Below are positions 23,518 to 36,048 of a DNA stretch of 44,330 nt, one piece after another (position 1 is the first letter of the stretch; each line of letters starts with the position of its first letter). Both the position numbers and the translations under genes were made by a program. The stretch comes from a virus. Its lineage: Duplodnaviria; Heunggongvirae; Uroviricota; Caudoviricetes. The notes beneath the pieces were generated by a model. It was not told the DNA's origin, did not search any database, and saw only the letters and a list, made by a program, of their open reading frames with translations. The stretch lies in IMG/VR virus record IMGVR_UViG_2541047714_000011. The stretch is one strand, 5' to 3'.

Positions 23518-23955
23518 TCATCGAAGGCATTGCGTCCTGATGTATTCCTGCAGGTAGTTAACCTGCGCGGTTATCTTGTCGATTCCACTTCGGAGACGGT
23601 AATAATTGAGTTCAGCATCTGCTGTAAGTCTTGGGCTTTCTCCATCGCCCATGCTGCTGGCTCCGGTCGTTGACTTTGCACAGATGGCGGCGACTTGCAG
23701 GCGCTTACGCCCAGCAGAAACATCAAAACGGAGACTTTCGATAGTCGCGTTTGCATCAGCAAGCTCCTTTGTGTATCTGGCGTCAAGTTCCGCTACATCA
23801 CGTTGACGCTTCTGCATATCAGCGATGATGGATGCGGCCTTATCACGCTGCTCTTTGTAGGCGATGGCGTTATCACGGTAATGATTAACAGCCCATGACA
23901 GGCAGACGATGATGCAGATAACCAGAGCGGAGATAATCGCGGTGACTCTGCTCAT
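23518..23955 (-). CDS. Rz: i-spanin Rz
   Basis: 145 aa; N-terminus [31 protein letters not shown] matches lambda Rz; ATGA overlap with R stop. Confidence 0.85.
23571..23756 (-). CDS. Rz1: o-spanin Rz1 (lipoprotein), embedded in Rz in another frame
   Basis: 61 aa from internal ATG; lipobox LLGVSAC; Pro-rich mature part. Confidence 0.7.
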
Positions 23956-24428
23956 ACCTCAATCTCTCTGACCGTTCCGCCAGCTTCTTTGAATTTTGCA
24001 ATCAGGCTGTCAACCTTATGCTCGAACTGACCATAACCAGCGCCCGGCAGTGAAGCCCAGATATTGCTGCAACGGTCGATAGCCTGACGGATATCACCGC
24101 GATCAATCATCGGCAAAGCGCCACGCTCCTTAATCTGCTGCAATGCAACAGCATCCTGGCTTTTAGGAGAGAAGTCTTTCAGGCCAAGCTGCTTACGATA
24201 GGCATCCCACCAACGGGAAAGAAGCTGGTAACGTCCGGCGGCTGTTGATTTGAGTTTTGGGTTTAGCGTGACAAGTTTGCGAGGGTGATCGGAGTAATCA
24301 GTGAATAGCTCTCCGCCAACAATGACGTCATAACCATGATTTCTGGTTTTTTGACGTCCGTTATCAGTTCCCTCTGACCACGCCAGCATATCGAGAAACG
24401 CCTTACGTTGATTATTGATTTCCACCAT
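23952..24428 (-). CDS. R: Endolysin, lambda R-type lytic transglycosylase
   Basis: 158 aa [49 protein letters not shown]..., essentially lambda R. Confidence 0.9.
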
Positions 24429-24735
24429 CTTCTACTCCGGCTTTTTTAGCAGCGAAGCGTTTGATAAGCGAACCAATCGAGTCAGTACCGATGTAGCCGA
24501 TGAACACGCTCGTTATATAAGCGAGATTGCTACTTAGTCCGGCGAAGTCGAGAAGGTCACGAATGAACCAGGCGATAATGGCGCACATCGTTGCGTCGAT
24601 TACTGTTTTTGTAAACGCACCGCCATTATATCTGCCGCGAAGGTACGCCATTGCAAACGCAAGGATTGCCCCGATGCCTTGTTCCTTTGCCGCGAGAATG
24701 GCGGCTAACAGGTCATGTTTTTCTGGCATCTTCAT
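24412..24735 (-). CDS. S: Holin/antiholin, lambda S-type (S107/S105 dual start)
   Basis: 107 aa [41 protein letters not shown]..., essentially lambda S including the Met1-Lys2-Met3 dual-start motif. Confidence 0.9.
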
Positions 24736-24977: not shown

Positions 24978-25053
24978 TGGTGCTGGTTAACGGACTTGAA
25001 CCGCTACCCATTCGCTTACAAGGCGACTGCTCTACCATTGGAGCTAAACCAGC
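24978..25053 (-). tRNA. Phage tRNA-like gene, probable tRNA-Thr (anticodon UGU)
   Basis: Hand-folded 76-nt cloverleaf: acceptor GCTGGTT/AACCAGC, D-arm GCTC-CAATGGTA-GAGC, anticodon loop CTTGTAA, T-loop TTCAAGT, 3' ACCA. Confidence 0.6.
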
Positions 25054-25058
25054 ATATT

Positions 25059-25133
25059 TGGCGGGACAGCGTGGACTCGAACCACGATAAGAAGGTTAAC
25101 AGCCTTCCGTAATGACCTTTATACGACTGACCC
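25059..25133 (-). tRNA. Phage tRNA-like gene, possible tRNA-Asn (anticodon GUU), non-canonical D-arm
   Basis: 75 nt: acceptor GGGTCAG/CTGTCCC (one mismatch), anticodon stem GAAGG/CCTTC with loop CTGTTAA, T-arm CGTGG-TTCGAGT-CCACG, 3' GCCA; D-arm irregular. Confidence 0.4.
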
Positions 25134-28551: not shown

Positions 28552-28737
28552 TTATTTTTTATGCCTGTAACCCCATTCTTCCAGCAACCTTGCGGCGTAC
28601 CACCCAAGAAACAAAGGAAAGAACATTACAATGAGATATTCCCCGCCACGGTCAATGTTCGAAATTGACCAGATTACGATGTAACCAGTGCAGAACAGGA
28701 ATATTACAAACCCCAAAAAGCTACTTCGTCGACTCAT
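28552..28737 (-). CDS. Hypothetical small membrane protein (~61 aa)
   Basis: Two predicted TM helices; ATG at 28737 preceded by AAGGAG. Confidence 0.4.
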   Translation of the reverse strand: MSRRSSFLGFVIFLFCTGYIVIWSISNIDRGGEYLIVMFFPLFLGWYAARLLEEWGYRHKK

Positions 28738-28739
28738 AC

Positions 28740-29024
28740 TCACTCCTTCACTTTGATTCCAGCGGCGCGGATGGATTCATCGATATCGTCACGGTCGTAC
28801 ACAGCAATAGCATCACTGACAAACCATACAGGCAACTCAATTTCAATAGCTGCTCGCGATGCCTGCCACGTTTGCCAGTGGCCTTGAACATCGTCCATCA
28901 CGTATTGACCACCAATATCACCACTGCCAATTTCATGGTGATTTTCAGGGTAACGGATAAGGTCTGATGATTCGCCTCCACGTCGCAACCAACTTTCTTC
29001 AAACTGCTTTCTTGATTCGTCCAT
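28740..29024 (-). CDS. Hypothetical acidic protein (94 aa)
   Basis: Track ORF; not recognised. Confidence 0.4.
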   Translation of the reverse strand: MDESRKQFEESWLRRGGESSDLIRYPENHHEIGSGDIGGQYVMDDVQGHWQTWQASRAAIEIELPVWFVSDAIAVYDRDDIDESIRAAGIKVKE

Positions 29025-29041
29025 CGATACTTACCCTCAGT

Positions 29042-29248
29042 TCAACTCACAAAACGCCACGCCATTTTTGCTACGACAACAGGCATAACACCGATAATCA
29101 CCCAGACAAATGCAGCGCCAAACAACGTATACCATGGGTCTTTACCGTCATTCACAAGACGAATGTAGCTATGCAGAACAATAAAAAACGTCAGAAGAAT
29201 CCATCCAACGCCAACGCATTTGAATGCGACGAGCATAAACTCAGCCAC
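29042..29248 (-). CDS. Hypothetical small membrane protein (68 aa)
   Basis: Two predicted TM helices; GTG start preceded by GGGGGAGAG. Confidence 0.4.
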   Translation of the reverse strand: MAEFMLVAFKCVGVGWILLTFFIVLHSYIRLVNDGKDPWYTLFGAAFVWVIIGVMPVVVAKMAWRFVS

Positions 29249-29324: not shown

Positions 29325-31217
29325 TTAATACTCCGTCACGTTTTCCTGTCGCCACGCCTCGTCATATTCCGATTTCGGCATATTGGCGATGTAGCTATAA
29401 GGCGATCCTGATTCAAGTTGCAGGAACTGGTGCGATTGCTCGTCAAGGAACAACGGGACGCCACCTTCCCAACCTTCGCCGTTACGTTGTTTTTCAAGCA
29501 TCAAAACAGATGCAGGAGATGCCAGTAGCTGTTCGTCCTTCTCTGACATCTTTTCACCACTCTGAACTCTCTGTAACGCTCTCTCACGAGCCTTGTTACG
29601 CCAGATGATGAAAAGGTTGTCTGTCAGGTCTGTTATCGCTCCAGAGCCTTTTACGTCCATTTTCCCGGTTGGTTTTTCTTCGCTGTCACCTTTTCGCGAG
29701 TGAGTAACGAGAATGACGTGGGAGTTTGTTTTGTTTTTGAAATCGCAAATCGAGTCAACAAACGCCTTCTGCCCGTTATAGTCATCGTCGCCTATGCCAC
29801 ATTTCATCAGGCTGTCGATGATGAATAACTGGATGCCGTATCGGCGGCGAGCGTAGTCGAATATTTCGATCAGCCTGTCGGCTTTCGCCGTTCCGGTCAG
29901 GCCAAACACCCAAAGTCTTTCGTCATAAAATTTAAATGCAGAGTCAATTTCCAGCACTGGCGGCATCTTGCAGCACGTCGCCTGACGGGTAAGTCGCTTA
30001 AGGAGAATGCCTGGCTTCAGCTCAAGTGACGCGATGCACGTCTTCACACCCTGACGCATTGCCTCAAGTGCCATATGCCCGACAACCTCCGTTTTTCCGT
30101 GACCGTTCACACCATTGACCAGCGTCAACTCGGCCTCACGGAACTGGAATTTATCTGCCAGAGATTCCCACGGTGGATTAAACAGATACTGCTGCTTGCC
30201 GTAGAAAGCGTTGATAGTGTCCTGGTAAAACTCTCGCGCGCTGTAGAGTTCTTCAGGATCGAAGTAGGATGCCGTGCCGATGTACTGCCAGATTTCATCC
30301 TCGGTAACACCGTTCATCAGGCATTCGTTGATGTCTTTGTACGGCAGAGTAACAAGACGGCAACGATGTTCACCGAGTCGGCTTGCGATTTCCCTTGCGG
30401 CTTCACGACCAACATCATCAACATCCATCGAGATGAATATTTCCTCAAACCTGTCGAGGTTGTGATACTCAAACTCAATCCACTGTTGCTTAGCGCCTTT
30501 CCCGCCACCAAACGGCACGGATAACGCCGAGATGCCGTATTGCGCATAGCTCATACAATCAATTTCGCCTTCGCAAAGTACAACCGCCCTCACGCCAGCG
30601 TCCAGAGCCTGCCATCCGAACAGACAAGGTTCGCAATCACCTTCTGCCATAATGACTTTCTTCCCGTCCGGGCGCTCAGTGCTGATTCGCTTTACCTGCA
30701 ACAACTCACCATCGCGTTTGTACGGAATCACCAGAGCATCCAGTTCTCGCTCTCCATTCCACACCTTGCCGCTGACAACCTCGTAGCGCTTTACGATTTC
30801 TGGCGATATGCCACGCGATTGCAGGTACTCAAGATGGGATTCTGTTCTGGTAACGTAGCGGGCGATTTTCTTGCGGTCAGGTCTGGAGAATTTCTTCTCA
30901 CGTTTGGCATCGAAATGGTGATCGTCATCCTTGATTCCGAGAAAGGCTTTCGCTTCCTGCATAGCCTGATGCAGGTTAATTCCACGACATGCCATCCACA
31001 AATCAAGCATGTCACCGCCGTCTCCCTCAGCGAAATCAGCCCATTTTTTCTTGCCGCTAAGGTTGACCTTAAGGCTGTTTCCCTTGTCACCGTTGACGTT
31101 ACCGGCAACCCACTCATGCCCCTCTTTCTTGCCGTTTGGCAACAGGTGCGGAGCCACCCTGTCAACCTGCGCCCAAAGCAGGTCACTGAGTTCTGATGGA
31201 CTCAAAGGTGCCTCCAT
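29325..31217 (-). CDS. Replicative primase-helicase (TOPRIM plus DnaB-like/P-loop helicase)
   Basis: 630 aa; TOPRIM-like VVLCEGEIDCMSYAQYG; Walker A GVNGHGKT; occupies the P position next to O. Confidence 0.8.
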   Translation of the reverse strand: MEAPLSPSELSDLLWAQVDRVAPHLLPNGKKEGHEWVAGNVNGDKGNSLKVNLSGKKKWADFAEGDGGDMLDLWMACRGINLHQAMQEAKAFLGIKDDDHHFDAKREKKFSRPDRKKIARYVTRTESHLEYLQSRGISPEIVKRYEVVSGKVWNGERELDALVIPYKRDGELLQVKRISTERPDGKKVIMAEGDCEPCLFGWQALDAGVRAVVLCEGEIDCMSYAQYGISALSVPFGGGKGAKQQWIEFEYHNLDRFEEIFISMDVDDVGREAAREIASRLGEHRCRLVTLPYKDINECLMNGVTEDEIWQYIGTASYFDPEELYSAREFYQDTINAFYGKQQYLFNPPWESLADKFQFREAELTLVNGVNGHGKTEVVGHMALEAMRQGVKTCIASLELKPGILLKRLTRQATCCKMPPVLEIDSAFKFYDERLWVFGLTGTAKADRLIEIFDYARRRYGIQLFIIDSLMKCGIGDDDYNGQKAFVDSICDFKNKTNSHVILVTHSRKGDSEEKPTGKMDVKGSGAITDLTDNLFIIWRNKARERALQRVQSGEKMSEKDEQLLASPASVLMLEKQRNGEGWEGGVPLFLDEQSHQFLQLESGSPYSYIANMPKSEYDEAWRQENVTEY

Positions 31218-31696
31218 GCGTTTCCTCTGCGGATTGTGGAAATTTGCATTTCACTCACTCCGTATTTAGTGGATAGTTCGCTTAGTTTCATACCAACAGA
31301 ATTCCTGATATCAATCACATCAGTTTCAGATAGTTTTGCCCTACCATTAAAAACTCCCTTTGCGCTTTTCAGTCCGATGCTAAAAGCATGTTTTAAATTC
31401 TCTGAGCAGGTACACCATTCCAAGTTCCAAATGGCGTTATCCGATTTGTCGCCGTTGATATGATTTACTTCTGGCTTGCAATACGGATTTGGGATAAATA
31501 ATTGAGCTACAAGACGATGAACTTTTAACGTCTTCTGAATCCCATCGGAACACAAAGTGACTCTTAGATAACCCTTGTTATCCGGAGATGGATTCAAAAA
31601 CCTGCCTCTTAAATGTGAATAAACACGACCGTCTTTGGTTACAGAGTATTTACCCTCATAACCAGGTATATATTCTCCAACTTCAAGGCTCATCAT
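31202..31696 (-). CDS. HNH homing-type endonuclease (NUMOD4-like N-terminus, HNH, C-terminal HTH)
   Basis: 164 aa; GYEGKYSVTKDGRVYS; HNH VNHINGDKSDNAIWNLEWCTCSEN; AT-rich; inserted between O and the helicase. Confidence 0.8.
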   Translation of the reverse strand: MMSLEVGEYIPGYEGKYSVTKDGRVYSHLRGRFLNPSPDNKGYLRVTLCSDGIQKTLKVHRLVAQLFIPNPYCKPEVNHINGDKSDNAIWNLEWCTCSENLKHAFSIGLKSAKGVFNGRAKLSETDVIDIRNSVGMKLSELSTKYGVSEMQISTIRRGNAWRHL

Positions 31697-31803: not shown

Positions 31804-32664
31804 TCACCTGTCGAAAAACACGTAGCCAGTTTTCGATACGGTGATTGCGGATGATGGTTTGGATTGTGGTTGAATAGTTTCTGGCTTCTCGTCGTTCCAG
31901 CGCTGACCGTTCAGGTAGCTCGATGGTAACAACCTGTCGAATCCGAACTGCTTACCATTCCTGCATGCGATGTCTTCTGCCAGCATCGTGGCAAACTCGC
32001 TTGCCGTACCCCTGGTAGTTTTACGCCATTCCCTGAACTGTGTTCTGAATGCCGAAGCTGCGTTTTTCTTCCCGGCCTTCCGCATGCCTGCACACCAGAA
32101 TATTTCCTCGAATGCCTTGTCGGTTTCTTCGTGACGGTCAGGTGATTTCTCACACTCCGTCCGAACACTTTCGGACATAGTGTTTTTATTATTTCTTTTT
32201 TCTTTTGTAATAGTTTCTTTTGTGTGTCCCTGTTTTGGTGACAGCGCTGTCACCGTTTTGGTGACACTTTTTGTCACCAATGCAGTGACATTATCACCAG
32301 AGTAGTGACACCCTTCGATTTGCCATTCCTCGATGTTCTTGTTAGGCCCGATTTTCTGGCCTTCGCGAAGGATAACCTTCATCGCGATAAGCTCATTCTT
32401 GGCCTTGTTTACCTTCTGTCTTGGCAGCCTGGTAATTTGAGCTAACTGACTATCAGAGATGCGATCCATCTTTTTACCGTAGCCGTATGTTTTACGGCAT
32501 ATGGCGTGGGCAACCTTGCTCTGATTTTTCGTTAAATCTGCGCCGATAAGCTCTTCATACAGGACATTTGCAAGACGGGTATAACCATCTTCAACTTCTG
32601 CCACACGACGCTCCACAGGCCGTTGTGAAGGCCTTAAATGTGTTACGGTTGCAAGATTACTCAT
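31804..32664 (-). CDS. O: Replication initiator, lambda O-like N-terminal domain
   Basis: 286 aa; N-terminal region ([54 protein letters not shown]) resembles lambda O; ori iterons inside the gene. Confidence 0.8.
32237..32313. repeat. Replication origin iterons inside O, with adjacent AT-rich tract (about 32183-32225)
   Basis: Four inverted-repeat units: GGTGACAgcgcTGTCACC (32237-32254), GGTGACActttttGTCACC (32260-32278), aGTGACAttaTCACC (32284-32298), GTGACACCC (32305-32313); codon positions checked against the O translation. Confidence 0.6.
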
Positions 32665-32837: not shown

Positions 32838-33116
32838 TCAGGCCTCGAAGAATTCGCCGTTCTTCGGGGCTTTTTCTTTTGTCAGCATTCTGGCTACTTT
32901 CTTAGCCAGTTCCGCCAACTCCTCGTCTTCAACACCCCATTCAAGAACAGCCAGAAGCATTCCCATTTTGGGGATGAAGCTGTCTTTCCATCGCGAAATT
33001 TGCGATTCATTAATCCCTAACGCGTCGGCAACCTTTCGCTGACCACGTACAGCAATTCGATTCAGGATGTTGCTTGTAATTGCATTCGCTTTCTTGCGAG
33101 TACTTGTAAGTTGCAT
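32838..33116 (-). CDS. cII: CII-like transcriptional activator
   Basis: 92 aa; ...[57 protein letters not shown] closely parallels lambda CII. Confidence 0.85.
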
Positions 33117-33173
33117 ATGTAAGTATTTCCTTAACTAATAAGAAGTTATGCGCATCAACTTATGCGCGTTGTA

Positions 33174-33218
33174 TTCCCGCATTTCGGCGGGAATGATGAC
33201 CATGACTGTTAAAGAGCG
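33174..33218 (-). promoter_or_regulatory. nutR-like site (boxA plus boxB hairpin)
   Basis: Minus strand: boxA cgctctttaaca, 13-nt spacer, boxB ttcccgccgaaatgcgggaa; the same boxA/boxB recurs at nutL. Confidence 0.5.
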
Positions 33219-33224
33219 GTGTTA

Positions 33225-33419
33225 CTATTTGTTTTTCTTGTTGCTTGGGAAAGGACGAACTTCCTCTCCAATCACACTGCCATCAGGCTTTACCGTAACC
33301 ATAATGTTACGACCTGCCAGAATGGCCTTGCTGATAGCGCACTGGATTACACCAAAGTCACTGGCTGCTTTAGCCTGTCCATGGATTTTGGCGTAATCGG
33401 CAAGTGTCATTCGAATCAT
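33225..33419 (-). CDS. cro: Cro repressor
   Basis: 64 aa from ATG at 33419 (GGAG upstream); ...[58 protein letters not shown] parallels lambda Cro. Confidence 0.85.
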
Positions 33420-33450
33420 ATGCACTCTCCGTTATTAACCATGAACAAAG

Positions 33451-33490
33451 AATACTACAGGTATTCAAAGCAATCAATACTCAGGGTATT
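33451..33490. promoter_or_regulatory. OR operators (at least two) between cro and cI, overlapping divergent PR/PRM
   Basis: 15-bp palindromes AATACtacagGTATT (33451-33465) and AATACtcaggGTATT (33476-33490). Confidence 0.6.
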
Positions 33491-33525
33491 TTTAGTTTAA
33501 GTACCTTAGCTATTAGAATTAAGCT

Positions 33526-34242
33526 ATGGAAAATAAAAAATCACTGACGACAGAACAGCTCGAAGACGCTAAGCGGCTTAAGGCTTTGTATGAGTCAAAA
33601 AAGAAAGAATTGGGAATAACCCAATACTCAATCGCTGATGAACTGGGTATCACCCAAGGAGCGGTAGGGCATTATCTTAATGGCAGAAACGCGCTAAACG
33701 TTGAGGTTGCATCTGGTTTTGCACGGCTGTTGCAAGTCTCAATTGCTGATTTTAGCCAGTCAATTGCTGCCAAGGTTGCAGAACAGGCAGAAAGCCTTAA
33801 GAGCGATGCCAACGTAAGGTATGCAGGGGAATACAGAGCAGGAAAGAGGTATCCGGTGTTAAGCAGTATCCAGGCTGGCTCGTGGTGTGAAGCATGCGAA
33901 CCATACACCATTAAAGACATAGATGTTTGGCTTGAGTCTGACGCGCATATTCAAGGTAATGCGTTCTGGCTTAAAGTGGAAGGTGATTCAATGACGGCAC
34001 CGGTTGGGTTAAGCATTCCAGAGGGAACATTCGTTCTTTTCGATACCGGAAGGGAGGCGATCAACGGCAGCTTGGTCATAGCAAAACTTTCTGACTCTAA
34101 CGAAGCAACATTCAAGAAGCTGATAATCGACGGCGGAAATAAATACCTCAAGGGACTTAATCCTGCATGGCCTCTCGTGCCAATCAATGGAAACTGCAAG
34201 ATTATAGGCGTTGCAATTGAGACAAAACTAAGGCTGGTTTGA
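33526..34242 (+). CDS. cI: CI repressor (HTH plus S24 LexA-like autopeptidase domain)
   Basis: 238 aa; N-terminal HTH (QYSIADELGITQGAVGHYLNG), C-terminal S24-like domain; divergent from cro; no SD before the ATG. Confidence 0.85.
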   Translation: MENKKSLTTEQLEDAKRLKALYESKKKELGITQYSIADELGITQGAVGHYLNGRNALNVEVASGFARLLQVSIADFSQSIAAKVAEQAESLKSDANVRYAGEYRAGKRYPVLSSIQAGSWCEACEPYTIKDIDVWLESDAHIQGNAFWLKVEGDSMTAPVGLSIPEGTFVLFDTGREAINGSLVIAKLSDSNEATFKKLIIDGGNKYLKGLNPAWPLVPINGNCKIIGVAIETKLRLV

Positions 34243-34259
34243 TCACGCAAGGGGCGATT

Positions 34260-34628
34260 ATGGTTGGAACCGCTATAGCAAGCTTTTTTGGGATGTTGGC
34301 AATCTCGACAATTTACGGCTTAGCGCATGCTTTTATTGCGAAATCTCTATCAGAAAAAATAAGCCAGGCTTGGGCGCATAGATCAGCTCGTTTCATGATT
34401 CTGGTGATCATAGCAATACAAGGGATATCTGCATTTATCCTCTATGGATCAAGCTTATACCTATTGTATCAAGGCGCGACATTTACGCCTTACACCAGTG
34501 ATTACGGAACTCTATACGATGGTAGTGAAGACATCACTGTGGCTTGGATCGTCTTTGGTTTATCTATGGCCGTGTCTGTTGTAGCAGACATCATTAAGGT
34601 AATTCTCGTCTTAACCTTCGCTGACTAA
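34260..34628 (+). CDS. Hypothetical polytopic membrane protein (~122 aa) downstream of cI
   Basis: ATG at 34260 with AAGGGG upstream, 18 nt after the cI stop; 3-4 predicted TM helices; track ORF begins at TTG 34239 overlapping the cI stop. Confidence 0.5.
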   Translation: MVGTAIASFFGMLAISTIYGLAHAFIAKSLSEKISQAWAHRSARFMILVIIAIQGISAFILYGSSLYLLYQGATFTPYTSDYGTLYDGSEDITVAWIVFGLSMAVSVVADIIKVILVLTFAD

Positions 34629-34714
34629 CCTATAATCCCGGCAGCAATAGCTATCGGGATCCACTTCACATATCCCGCATAAAAAGCACTGAACAAGCAG
34701 AAACCGAAAAAATA

Positions 34715-34801
34715 AATATCCTTTGTATTCATTTGCTTATCATTATTTCATCAAAAATAAATACCTTGGGTATTTACACAATAAAATACCTAAAGTATTC
34801 T
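34715..34801. promoter_or_regulatory. OL operators and PL promoter
   Basis: AATATcctttGTATT (34715-34729), AATACcttggGTATT (34760-34774), AATACctaaaGTATT (34785-34799); -35 TTTACA (34773-34778), 17-bp spacer, -10 TATTCT (34796-34801); same half-sites as OR. Confidence 0.55.
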
Positions 34802-34847
34802 TTAGCCATCAGCAGGACGCTGGTAGCCAAACGGAACAGATTGGCAG

Positions 34848-34888
34848 GCTCTTTAACATTGATGGGATTGTCCCGCCGAAATGCGGGA
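34848..34888 (+). promoter_or_regulatory. nutL-like site (boxA plus boxB)
   Basis: boxA gctctttaaca (34848-34858), boxB tcccgccgaaatgcggga (34871-34888); identical core to nutR. Confidence 0.5.
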
Positions 34889-35199
34889 ACCAAAGAGTAG
34901 TTGGCTTTGGGGTGACGTGAAGTGCAGCTGCACGACGGCAACCGGAAGATAAGCACCCGGCGCGTCACCGCCAAAGTCAATTCCATAGGCGAAATGCAGC
35001 CGCCAAACACAGCCAATGCTGCACATGCAACAGGAGGATTTATGTGAATGCATAACTTCAAAACCGAGGTTAATTAAATCTCTCGATCCGAGCATTGACC
35101 TATTAGGTGGCGAGATGCTCTTTCTGCCCCTCAGTTCGAGGGGCCAGAAACCACTTTGCAATCACTATCAATTCCAAAGTTGTTTCATCGGAGGTCAAC

Positions 35200-35499
35200 A
35201 TGACAGTAGTCATTACATATCTGGCTGACGATAACGCCAGAAATCGCCGCAGAGCACGCAGACAGGCTCAACGTGAACAGGCAATGCAAGAGCAGCGACT
35301 GGCACGAAAAATTGCGCTAAAGCTCTCTGGTTGCGTCAGAGCAGATAAAGCAGCATCACTCGGAAGCCTTCGCTGCAAGAAGGCAGAAGAAGTCGATCGT
35401 AAACAGAATCGTATTTACTACAGCAAGCCACGCAGTGAAATGGGTGTGACTTGTGTTGGTCGCCAGAAAATGAAATTAGGCAGCAAACCACTTATTTGA
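35200..35499 (+). CDS. N: N-like antiterminator with arginine-rich motif
   Basis: 99 aa from ATG at 35200 (GGAGG upstream); N-terminal ARM DDNARNRRRARRQAQREQ; first gene after PL/nutL; track ORF is N-extended. Confidence 0.55.
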   Translation: MTVVITYLADDNARNRRRARRQAQREQAMQEQRLARKIALKLSGCVRADKAASLGSLRCKKAEEVDRKQNRIYYSKPRSEMGVTCVGRQKMKLGSKPLI

Positions 35500-35507
35500 G
35501 GTGAGAT

Positions 35508-35594
35508 ATGGAAGAAGAATTTGAAGAGTTCGAAGAGCATCCTCAGGATGTGATGGAACAATACCAGGACTATCCGTATGACTACGACTATTGA
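35508..35594 (+). CDS. Hypothetical 28-aa acidic peptide
   Basis: Hand-translated MEEEFEEFEEHPQDVMEQYQDYPYDYDY; strong SD GAGGTGAG upstream. Confidence 0.3.
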   Translation: MEEEFEEFEEHPQDVMEQYQDYPYDYDY

Positions 35595-35778
35595 TACAAA
35601 TCAATGGTGTGGACAATTCAAGCGATGCAATGGATGCAAGCTGCAATCGGAATGCATGGTTAAGCCTGAAGAAATGTTTCCTGTAATGGAGGATGGGAAA
35701 TATGTCGATAAATGGGCAATACGAACGACGGCAATGATTGCCAGAGAACTTGGTAAACAGAACAACAAGGCTGCCTGA
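35578..35778 (+). CDS. Hypothetical Cys-containing small protein (66 aa)
   Basis: Track ORF; CxxxxxC..CxxC pattern; weak SD. Confidence 0.35.
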   Translation: MTTTIDTNQWCGQFKRCNGCKLQSECMVKPEEMFPVMEDGKYVDKWAIRTTAMIARELGKQNNKAA

Positions 35779-35805
35779 TGGTGGCCTTTGTTTTTAAGGT
35801 GCTAT

Positions 35806-36048
35806 ATGAAAATTAAAACCATGGGAGCAAGCCCATTAAGCGGTCGTATTTTTCAAGGAACATTAAACACTGAAAAAGGAATGTGGGTAGGAAAGAAAGA
35901 AGATGTCACCGAACAGGCAGTTAAGGCAGTAGCTGAACACCTGATGATAAAAGACCAGAAATACGCATACGAAACGAAGGATGGCAAATGGCTGATAATA
36001 AGCCATCAACTGGTTGATAAATTACCAGAAGATTTTATTGCTGATTAA
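35806..36048 (+). CDS. Hypothetical protein (80 aa)
   Basis: ATG at 35806 after AAGGTG; AT-rich; not recognised. Confidence 0.4.
   Translation: MKIKTMGASPLSGRIFQGTLNTEKGMWVGKKEDVTEQAVKAVAEHLMIKDQKYAYETKDGKWLIISHQLVDKLPEDFIAD

Follow-up and report, generated by a model that had tools for sequence, protein, structure and literature searches.

Most of the tiny inner-membrane proteins of phages and prophages that have been characterised block genome entry, with RexB as the exception. T4 Imm and HK97 gp15 are tiny membrane proteins of this kind, lacking a soluble domain and blocking genome entry at the cytoplasmic membrane.

The slot between the repressor gene cI and OL or N holds cargo genes in a number of prophages, including rexAB in lambda, bstA in BTP1, stk in 933W, hex in 434, and genes 44 and 45 in epsilon34 (PMC8585504, PMC3564112, PMC2629481). 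Those genes of the cI-OL slot that have been characterised all target superinfecting phages, and prophage stability is also affected by some of them (PMC8585504, PMC3564112). A preliminary description of the locus analysed here had stated that this slot houses exclusion and abortive-infection genes, and rexAB, bstA, stk, and hex bear this out (PMC8585504, PMC3564112, PMC2629481). Here, we describe the occupant of this slot in a P22-like prophage and compare it with these systems.

Immunity region of the prophage and the hkaS reading frame

The window (the whole stretch of DNA that was analysed; 44,330 nucleotides) is a P22-like prophage integrated in an Enterobacterales chromosome and not a virion genome, since host-type genes flank both of its ends. 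A tRNA-Arg(CCU) gene at 1009-1083, which we take to be argW, adjoins the integrase gene at 1209-2402. The left flank (1-933) is a gene of the formate/nitrite-transporter family, presumably yfdC, and the right flank (43083-44330) encodes a LacY-family symporter, which we assume to be CscB. The immunity region shares approximately 99% DNA identity with those of HK620, HK630, HK140, mEpX2, HF4s, several vB_EcoP phages, and two Stx2c-converting phages. Its features are as follows:

32838-33116, minus strand: cII, immunity region gene
33225-33425, minus strand: cro, immunity region gene
33450-33515: OR operators between cro and cI, with OR1 at 33450-33466, OR2 at 33475-33491, and OR3 at 33499-33515 (coordinates from HK620 record AF335538, checked in the window)
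33526-34242, plus strand: cI repressor of the HK620 immunity type, 238 aa (HTH_3 PF01381 and Peptidase_S24 PF00717; PHROG 4)
34243-34259, plus strand: spacer of 17 nt between cI and hkaS, with the Shine-Dalgarno sequence of hkaS (from reading the sequence)
34260-34628, plus strand: hkaS, encoding a predicted three-helix inner-membrane protein of 122 aa (open reading frame, PHROG, hydropathy, AlphaFold2)
34635-34660, plus strand: stem-loop beginning 7 nt past the hkaS stop, without a U-run
34715-34800: OL operators and PL (palindromes and promoter scan; sequence conserved in all clades)
34847-34888, plus strand: nutL (boxA/boxB), where the PL early operon begins (position taken over from the HK620 record; sequence conserved)
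35200-35499, plus strand: N antiterminator, gene 1 of the PL operon (PHROG 271, E = 1.5e-36; weak Pfam N_peptide match)

The hkaS open reading frame is intact and comprises 122 codons on the plus strand, from an ATG at 34260 to a TAA at 34626-34628. The cI gene ends in a TGA at 34240-34242, leaving a gap of 17 nt such that the ATG begins at the 18th base past the stop, and a Shine-Dalgarno sequence (AAGGGG, 34249-34254) is positioned 5 nt before the ATG. Palindromes of the form AATAC-N5-GTATT are found in OR at 33451-33465 and 33476-33490, together with a degenerate third, and in OL at 34715-34729, 34760-34774, and 34785-34799; this pattern matches the window five times against 1.1 matches expected by chance. 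A promoter scan identified a PL-like promoter at 34773-34801, with a -35 element (TTTACA) at 34773 and a -10 element (TATTCT) ending at 34801. The preliminary description had proposed a reading frame of about 122 aa close behind cI and before OL/PL, and both the frame and its placement hold, as the OL palindromes (34715-34799) and PL lie past hkaS.

Scanning for promoters and terminators between cI and hkaS revealed no promoter-like or terminator-like site. In every locus that we examined, hkaS starts 17-20 nt past the stop of a cI gene encoding 238-240 aa and precedes OL/PL and N, giving an invariant order of cro in one orientation, cI and hkaS in the other, and then OL/PL and N. A stem-loop follows the hkaS stop in every clade examined; the one at 34635-34660 was not called as an intrinsic terminator. 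This hairpin is likely to be the 3' end or a stabiliser of the PRM/PRE immunity transcript, similar to a tIMM. The 17-nt gap, the lack of an intervening promoter or terminator, the synteny, the flanking operators, and the hairpin together make it very likely that hkaS is co-transcribed with cI from PRM, and additionally from PRE during establishment. The anatomy of the region, including the clade-wide gene order, thus argues in favour of the co-transcription with the repressor that the preliminary description had proposed. The sRNA svsR has been reported at the 3' end of cI in another prophage, a lambda-like one that sits at icd (PMC12803456).

Two further reading frames at the locus were considered and rejected. 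An upstream TTG start at 34239, which would yield a protein of 129 aa, was rejected because it lacks a Shine-Dalgarno sequence and loses the frame in the locus of the Hafnia type, whereas the ATG at 34260 and its Shine-Dalgarno sequence are kept in every clade examined. A 35-aa hydrophobic reading frame on the minus strand at 34625-34732 (MNTKDIYFFGFCLFSAFYAGYVKWIPIAIAAGIIG) is convergent with hkaS, overlaps its stop codon, and ends beside OL. As a type-I-toxin-like partner of hkaS it was rejected, being absent from the other clades and showing polymorphism of 11 nonsynonymous to 3 synonymous sites. It is intact in 45 of 45 ungapped loci of the E. coli clade but has no clear Shine-Dalgarno sequence. 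This reading frame is probably not a gene.

Several other observations concern the regulatory sites in this region. The OL palindrome at 34715-34729 (AATATCCTTTGTATT) is a third operator-like site that is kept in all clades. In the HK620 GenBank record, OL3 is placed at the equivalent of 34737-34753 (TTATCATTATTTCATCA), which has no similarity to an operator, and the 'tIMM' of that record covers the palindrome. The public HK620 annotation of OL3 and tIMM looks misplaced, and the hairpin at 34635-34660 looks to be the better candidate for a terminator or 3' end. Relative to HK620, the window carries an insertion of 204 bp between nutL and the start of N (34982-35185), which HK140 and several further phages share. 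Within this insertion lies a GC-rich hairpin (35126-35144) without a following T-run, and the insertion could affect processing or translation of the N leader. A search of positions 33000-36000 against Rfam returned no match.

Elsewhere in the window, a minus-strand reading frame of 164 aa at 31202-31696, which resembles a homing endonuclease (NUMOD4 and HNH_3), is wedged between an O-like replication initiator gene (31804-32664) and a gene for a Toprim/DnaB-like primase-helicase (29325-31217). Prophage-borne genes for tRNA-Thr(UGU) and tRNA-Asn(GUU) are present on the minus strand at 24978-25133, just upstream of the presumed lysis cassette. The latter comprises reading frames at approximately 23518-24735, on the strand opposite hkaS, that we read as lysis genes from their position and size. 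Three small reading frames on the minus strand, one just downstream of the tailspike gene (2494-2793) and two in the nin-like region (28552-28743 and 29042-29248), each encode two predicted transmembrane helices and match no Pfam family. These three could represent additional membrane-protein cargo.

Distribution, conservation, and anatomy of HkaS

In sequence, the reading frame at 34260-34628 is hkaS of coliphage HK620; it is already annotated and hence is not a new gene. Its product is 99.2% identical to HK620 HkaS (AAK28867) by tblastn and matches PHROG 6534, whose function is unknown, over residues 1-122 of 122 (E = 2.4e-79). Amino acid identity to the copies in HK620, HK630, HK140, and mEpX2, which are of equal length and share the same position and cI, is 97.5-100%. 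The gene is annotated as 'unknown' in the HK620 record and as 'hypothetical protein' in that of HK140, and every source that we consulted labels the family 'unknown' or 'hypothetical'. A literature search on hkaS, a name that collides with the HKAS herbarium acronym, found no mention of it.

Homologs of hkaS were identified by tblastn in 16 phage records (about 11 phages), each time with an HK620-type repressor, and the carriers comprise P22-like podoviruses, the lambda-like HK630, HK97-like phages (Hendrixvirinae), and Stx2c phages. The full-length gene is present in 146 of 5,426 complete E. coli genomes, where it is always annotated as hypothetical, and the exact protein sequence is found on at least 1,000 contigs. 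A word-indexed search of 5.8 billion proteins recovered 12 clusters, all of them members of the HkaS family. When 1.84 billion representative proteins were searched exhaustively with a profile, nothing but the HkaS cluster and one fragment of 44 residues was retrieved. Two N-terminal HkaS motifs searched against contigs, with one genome per species, yielded no relative. HkaS constitutes an orphan family confined to those prophages of Enterobacterales that have HK620-type immunity.

We retrieved 80 IMG/VR loci using the cI protein and counted carriers of hkaS where downstream DNA was available. The gene is present in all 63 loci with a cI that is at least 87% identical and absent from all 17 loci with a cI that is 76-78% identical. 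The latter instead hold a three-gene MqsA-type cassette, a 131-aa soluble reading frame, or just a terminator. Since related repressors carry other cargo or nothing, hkaS is an accessory gene and the slot is a cargo site; the distribution among these loci indicates that hkaS is dispensable for the lysis-lysogeny switch as such. The perfect linkage of hkaS to cI needs no functional cause, as anything between cI and OL is trapped in the immunity module.

The three-gene cassette is exemplified by locus L079 (3334-4862; also L084 and L089), in which cI is 76% identical. It lies behind cI with its own TTGACA/TAATGG-type promoter and encodes three proteins: one of 205 aa in the MqsA antitoxin family (E = 6e-19) and two, of 141 aa and 159 aa, that match no family. 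None of the PADLOC models matches this cassette, which is possibly a module for defence or of the toxin-antitoxin kind that has yet to be characterised.

Six clades of HkaS were distinguished, all of 121-122 codons, and these track host genera as read from the members of protein clusters. Relative to the window HkaS, identity is 83% in the clade of Hafnia paralvei, 61% in that of Salmonella and Enterobacter hormaechei or E. cloacae, 55% in that of Enterobacter ludwigii, 52% in that of Klebsiella aerogenes, and 51% in that of Citrobacter braakii. The loci that we examined cover all clades but the E. ludwigii type, for which no locus was retrieved. A Shine-Dalgarno sequence is kept in every clade examined and is of the AAGGA type with a spacing of 7-8 nt in the Salmonella, Hafnia-type, and K. 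aerogenes-type loci. Between most clades, synonymous substitutions have reached saturation; where dN/dS could be measured, it is 0.13-0.2. The dN of hkaS is approximately four times that of cI, which is 86-96% identical across clades, and 38 HkaS residues are invariant over the six clades. The segregating sites of hkaS within the E. coli clade (17 synonymous, 22 nonsynonymous) point to moderate constraint. At the level of sequence conservation, hkaS is thereby shown to be a real gene under purifying selection.

Amino acid variation among E. coli-clade copies is concentrated at residues 93-94 (TV, SM, or YM; positions 34536-34541), at the periplasmic end of the third transmembrane helix, and at residues 49-51 (VII, VVI, VIM, or AIM; positions 34404-34412) in the second. 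Two major HkaS alleles coexist in this clade.

The hydropathy profile of HkaS comprises three hydrophobic segments at approximately 3-27, 45-72, and 93-120, which are separated by a basic loop at 28-44 (K28, K33, R41, and R44) and an acidic, Tyr-rich loop at 73-92 (D81, D87, E90, and D91). AlphaFold2 modelled three long helices (2-29, 41-73, and 89-121), with a shorter one at 31-38 and the second loop forming a small beta-hairpin, at a mean pLDDT of 92 and a pTM of 0.79 from an alignment of only 7 sequences. Application of the positive-inside rule suggests that the N-terminus is outside, the loop at 28-44 is cytoplasmic, the loop at 73-92 is periplasmic, and the C-terminus is inside. Hydropathy, charge distribution, and the AlphaFold2 model all point to the polytopic membrane protein that the preliminary description had predicted; of the three to four helices that it allowed, both hydropathy and the model favour three, and a fourth is not supported.

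Conservation is unevenly distributed over this predicted topology. The cytoplasmic loop contains conserved residues L30, K33, I34, Q36, W38, H40, A43, R44, and F45 (motif KISQAW.H..ARF), and the conserved C-terminus includes D110, K113, and I115 followed by LTFAD (L118-D122). The periplasmic loop is the least conserved part, with 2 of 17 positions invariant. Invariant polar residues within the helices are Q54, S65, Y67, Y70, S106, D110, and K113. Candidate functional sites are Q54, S106, D110, K113, the cytoplasmic KISQAW.H..ARF loop, and the C-terminal LTFAD.

Searches for relatives of known function were uninformative. The best Pfam match of HkaS was Cation_ATPase_C (E = 0.0035), short of the family cut-off, and no usable match was obtained in NCBIfam. 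None of the PADLOC 2.0 defence families matched at E <= 1, although PADLOC coverage possibly leaves out the BstA defence family. The HkaS profile matched no PDB sequence at E <= 10, and comparison of folds gave no informative match. No holin family of Pfam or PHROG matched HkaS, which is encoded outside the presumed lysis cassette. The absence of a RexA partner, asserted in the preliminary description, was confirmed in that tblastn of lambda RexA against the window found nothing and no partner reading frame is present between cI and hkaS or between hkaS and OL. Its further statement that the protein has no similarity to RexB agrees with an hhalign probability of 0.7% and an empty tblastn of lambda RexB against the window. 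A search of the window for a P22-type SieA likewise detected none.

Possible functions of HkaS

That HkaS is a genuine membrane protein expressed in lysogens is, in our assessment, highly probable. What it does there is a matter for more guarded interpretation. We tentatively propose as the most likely function, while regarding the idea as somewhat doubtful, that HkaS is a lysogen-expressed inner-membrane exclusion protein with an entry-exclusion mechanism, a reading drawn from its position, size, and architecture. Through the cI transcript, HkaS is very likely made continuously in lysogens, and its message probably ends at, or is stabilised by, the stem-loop at 34635-34660. According to the exclusion proposal, the protein would act at the cytoplasmic membrane against a superinfecting phage, and the step most plausibly hindered would be genome delivery, as with P22 SieA, T4 Imm, or HK97 gp15 but without homology to them. 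Such exclusion would need no RexA-type cytoplasmic sensor, in keeping with the lack of any soluble domain in HkaS with which to sense. This proposal is consistent with the slot being a known defence hotspot whose cargo is expressed with the repressor (PMC8585504, PMC3564112, PMC2629481), with the mechanistic precedent of P22 SieA, a three-helix inner-membrane protein that blocks DNA delivery (PMC10883804), and with the absence of a detectable P22-type SieA, RexA, or RexB from the prophage. The fourfold higher dN of hkaS relative to cI and the weak conservation of its periplasmic loop would fit an arms race with the host or with phages, but rapid divergence may merely reflect the low constraint typical of transmembrane segments. 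Moreover, HkaS has no PADLOC, Pfam, or NCBIfam model and no informative fold match, and its best-conserved surfaces (loop 30-43 and the C-terminal tail) are predicted to be cytoplasmic, whereas recognition of ejection or tape-measure proteins would be expected to involve periplasmic ones. The gene also rides with the repressor through podovirus, lambda-like, HK97-like, and Stx virion types, so that no matching virion target is obvious for it, in contrast to sieA with its place beside ejection-protein genes. The cytoplasmic location of the conserved surfaces and the independence of virion type count against recognition of a SieA-like, periplasmic kind and keep several alternatives alive.

One alternative that we consider unlikely, yet not negligible, is that HkaS is a lysogenic-conversion or host-fitness factor unrelated to phages, conferring tolerance to a membrane-active toxin, bacteriocin, bile, acid, or antimicrobial peptide, or modulating a host transporter. 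As prophage cargo that would be constitutively expressed in gut Enterobacterales, hkaS fits this description, and its clades track Escherichia, Salmonella/Enterobacter, Hafnia, K. aerogenes, and Citrobacter while cI stays 86-96% identical, which suggests adaptation to a host-specific membrane partner. Small inner-membrane proteins with three transmembrane helices include the immunity proteins for pore-forming colicins. HkaS has no similarity to colicin-immunity or other Pfam families, and every characterised gene in the slot acts on phages (PMC8585504, PMC3564112). The same predicted cytoplasmic surfaces, namely the short amphipathic helix at 31-38 and the invariant C-terminal LTFAD, could instead belong to a modulator of the switch or of prophage stability that affects repressor cleavage or the stability of CII/CIII, for instance via FtsH/HflKC or another protease. 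Strict co-inheritance and presumed co-expression with cI, including from PRE at establishment, would suit such a role, as would the precedents of Hex and RexAB in the same slot: 434 Hex lowers RecA-mediated repressor cleavage (PMC3564112), and lambda RexA and RexB are reported to aid the lysogenic-to-lytic transition (bioRxiv 10.1101/2021.04.19.439022). Nonetheless, sister cassettes with 76-78% identical repressors manage without hkaS, which accordingly is not a core part of the switch, its linkage to cI is trivially explained by trapping between cI and OL, and nothing in its sequence points to FtsH, RecA, or any protease; we regard this role as improbable. We are equally sceptical of a sensor-less form of Rex-like abortive infection, in which an HkaS oligomer would be a latent pore or ion channel that is opened by a membrane-active phage protein or a host signal, with the resulting depolarisation aborting the infection and HkaS doing the job of RexB without RexA. 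HkaS occupies the slot of rexB (PMC8585504), and, within a small polytopic protein of the inner membrane, D110 and K113 form a buried Asp/Lys pair that is invariant, as is Q54. Yet it has no homology to RexB, three rather than four transmembrane helices, no RexA or adjacent partner reading frame, and no PADLOC match, and it has no soluble domain able to sense infection, which argues against a self-contained sensor-effector protein of abortive infection. We know of no characterised single-gene abortive-infection effector of this small size that lacks a sensor, and a Rex-like or abortive-infection function would be pure analogy of position. Finally, the lack of annotation or of a known domain and the very narrow distribution might suggest a chance or decaying reading frame that hitch-hikes between cI and OL, but this is extremely improbable. 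The 121-122 codons are intact, the start and Shine-Dalgarno sequence are conserved, 38 residues are invariant despite saturated synonymous sites at a dN/dS of 0.13-0.2, the full query length is covered in 146 of 146 E. coli genomes with hkaS, and the AlphaFold2 model is highly confident from 7 sequences. The conservation data effectively refute the non-gene reading.

Taken more broadly, the proposal would be that HkaS founds a new family of stand-alone inner-membrane proteins of phage exclusion, or of sensor-less, Rex-like abortive infection, hard-wired into the immunity cassette; we see this as a reasonable possibility, if one that falls short of being probable. If it is correct, approximately 3% of E. 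coli, together with lysogens of Salmonella, Enterobacter, Klebsiella, Citrobacter, and Hafnia, would gain a membrane-level defence that is missed by current defence-finders, and, being hard-wired in the cassette, HkaS would move with the repressor between podovirus, siphovirus, and Stx-phage backbones. The exclusion reading would add a very small, single-gene membrane defence carried by a widespread cassette, including that of Stx2c-converting phages. It would also offer a minimal system for how a membrane protein without a soluble domain stops infection, a question that for RexB is open after 60 years (PMC8585504). Should its role instead lie in tuning lysogeny or the fitness of the host, HkaS would be a second passenger of the PRM operon, after Hex, that acts on the switch itself. 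As an annotated orphan reading frame in a well-known hotspot, hkaS is of an ordinary kind, yet it lends itself to clean experiments and is cheap to test because HK620 and mEpX2 are culturable and the mEpX2 record lists E. coli K-12 MG1655 as host.

Comparison with described exclusion systems

In position, HkaS is most readily compared with lambda RexB, which is encoded in the cI-OL slot on the PRM transcript; hkaS is in the equivalent position, and both products are small polytopic inner-membrane proteins. However, RexB has 144 aa and works with the RexA sensor, whereas HkaS has 122 aa and no accompanying rexA gene, and a single hydropathy method applied to both gave four hydrophobic segments for RexB against three for HkaS. 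The genes for 434 Hex, 933W Stk, and BTP1 BstA are likewise accessory genes downstream of a prophage repressor, with heterologous exclusion or abortive-infection phenotypes (PMC3564112, PMC8585504). Hex and Stk are co-transcribed with the repressor, and bstA is presumed to share the repressor promoter (PMC3564112, PMC8585504). Going by their descriptions, Stk is a kinase, and BstA brings about abortive infection as a protein associated with DNA, which sets them apart from the purely membrane HkaS; the word 'membrane' is absent from the paper on Hex (PMC3564112).

T4 Imm and HK97 gp15, judged by description, are similar to HkaS in size and architecture, but they occur in other genomic contexts and share no PHROG, Pfam, or PADLOC cross-match with it. 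P22 SieA differs from HkaS in that it has 162-164 aa, has its own promoter, and adjoins ejection gene 16 in the immI/ant region, whereas hkaS is located in immC and is found in siphovirus genomes too. The hhalign probability between the two is 0.3%, a comparison made with the P22 type, one of three SieA sequence types described (PMC10883804). In the window, the reading frames in the interval between gene 16 and ant (6927-7376 and 7398-7835) encode fewer than two hydrophobic segments and are not predicted to be polytopic. [quoted passage not shown] On these grounds of analogy, P22 SieA is the best analogue for how HkaS might act.
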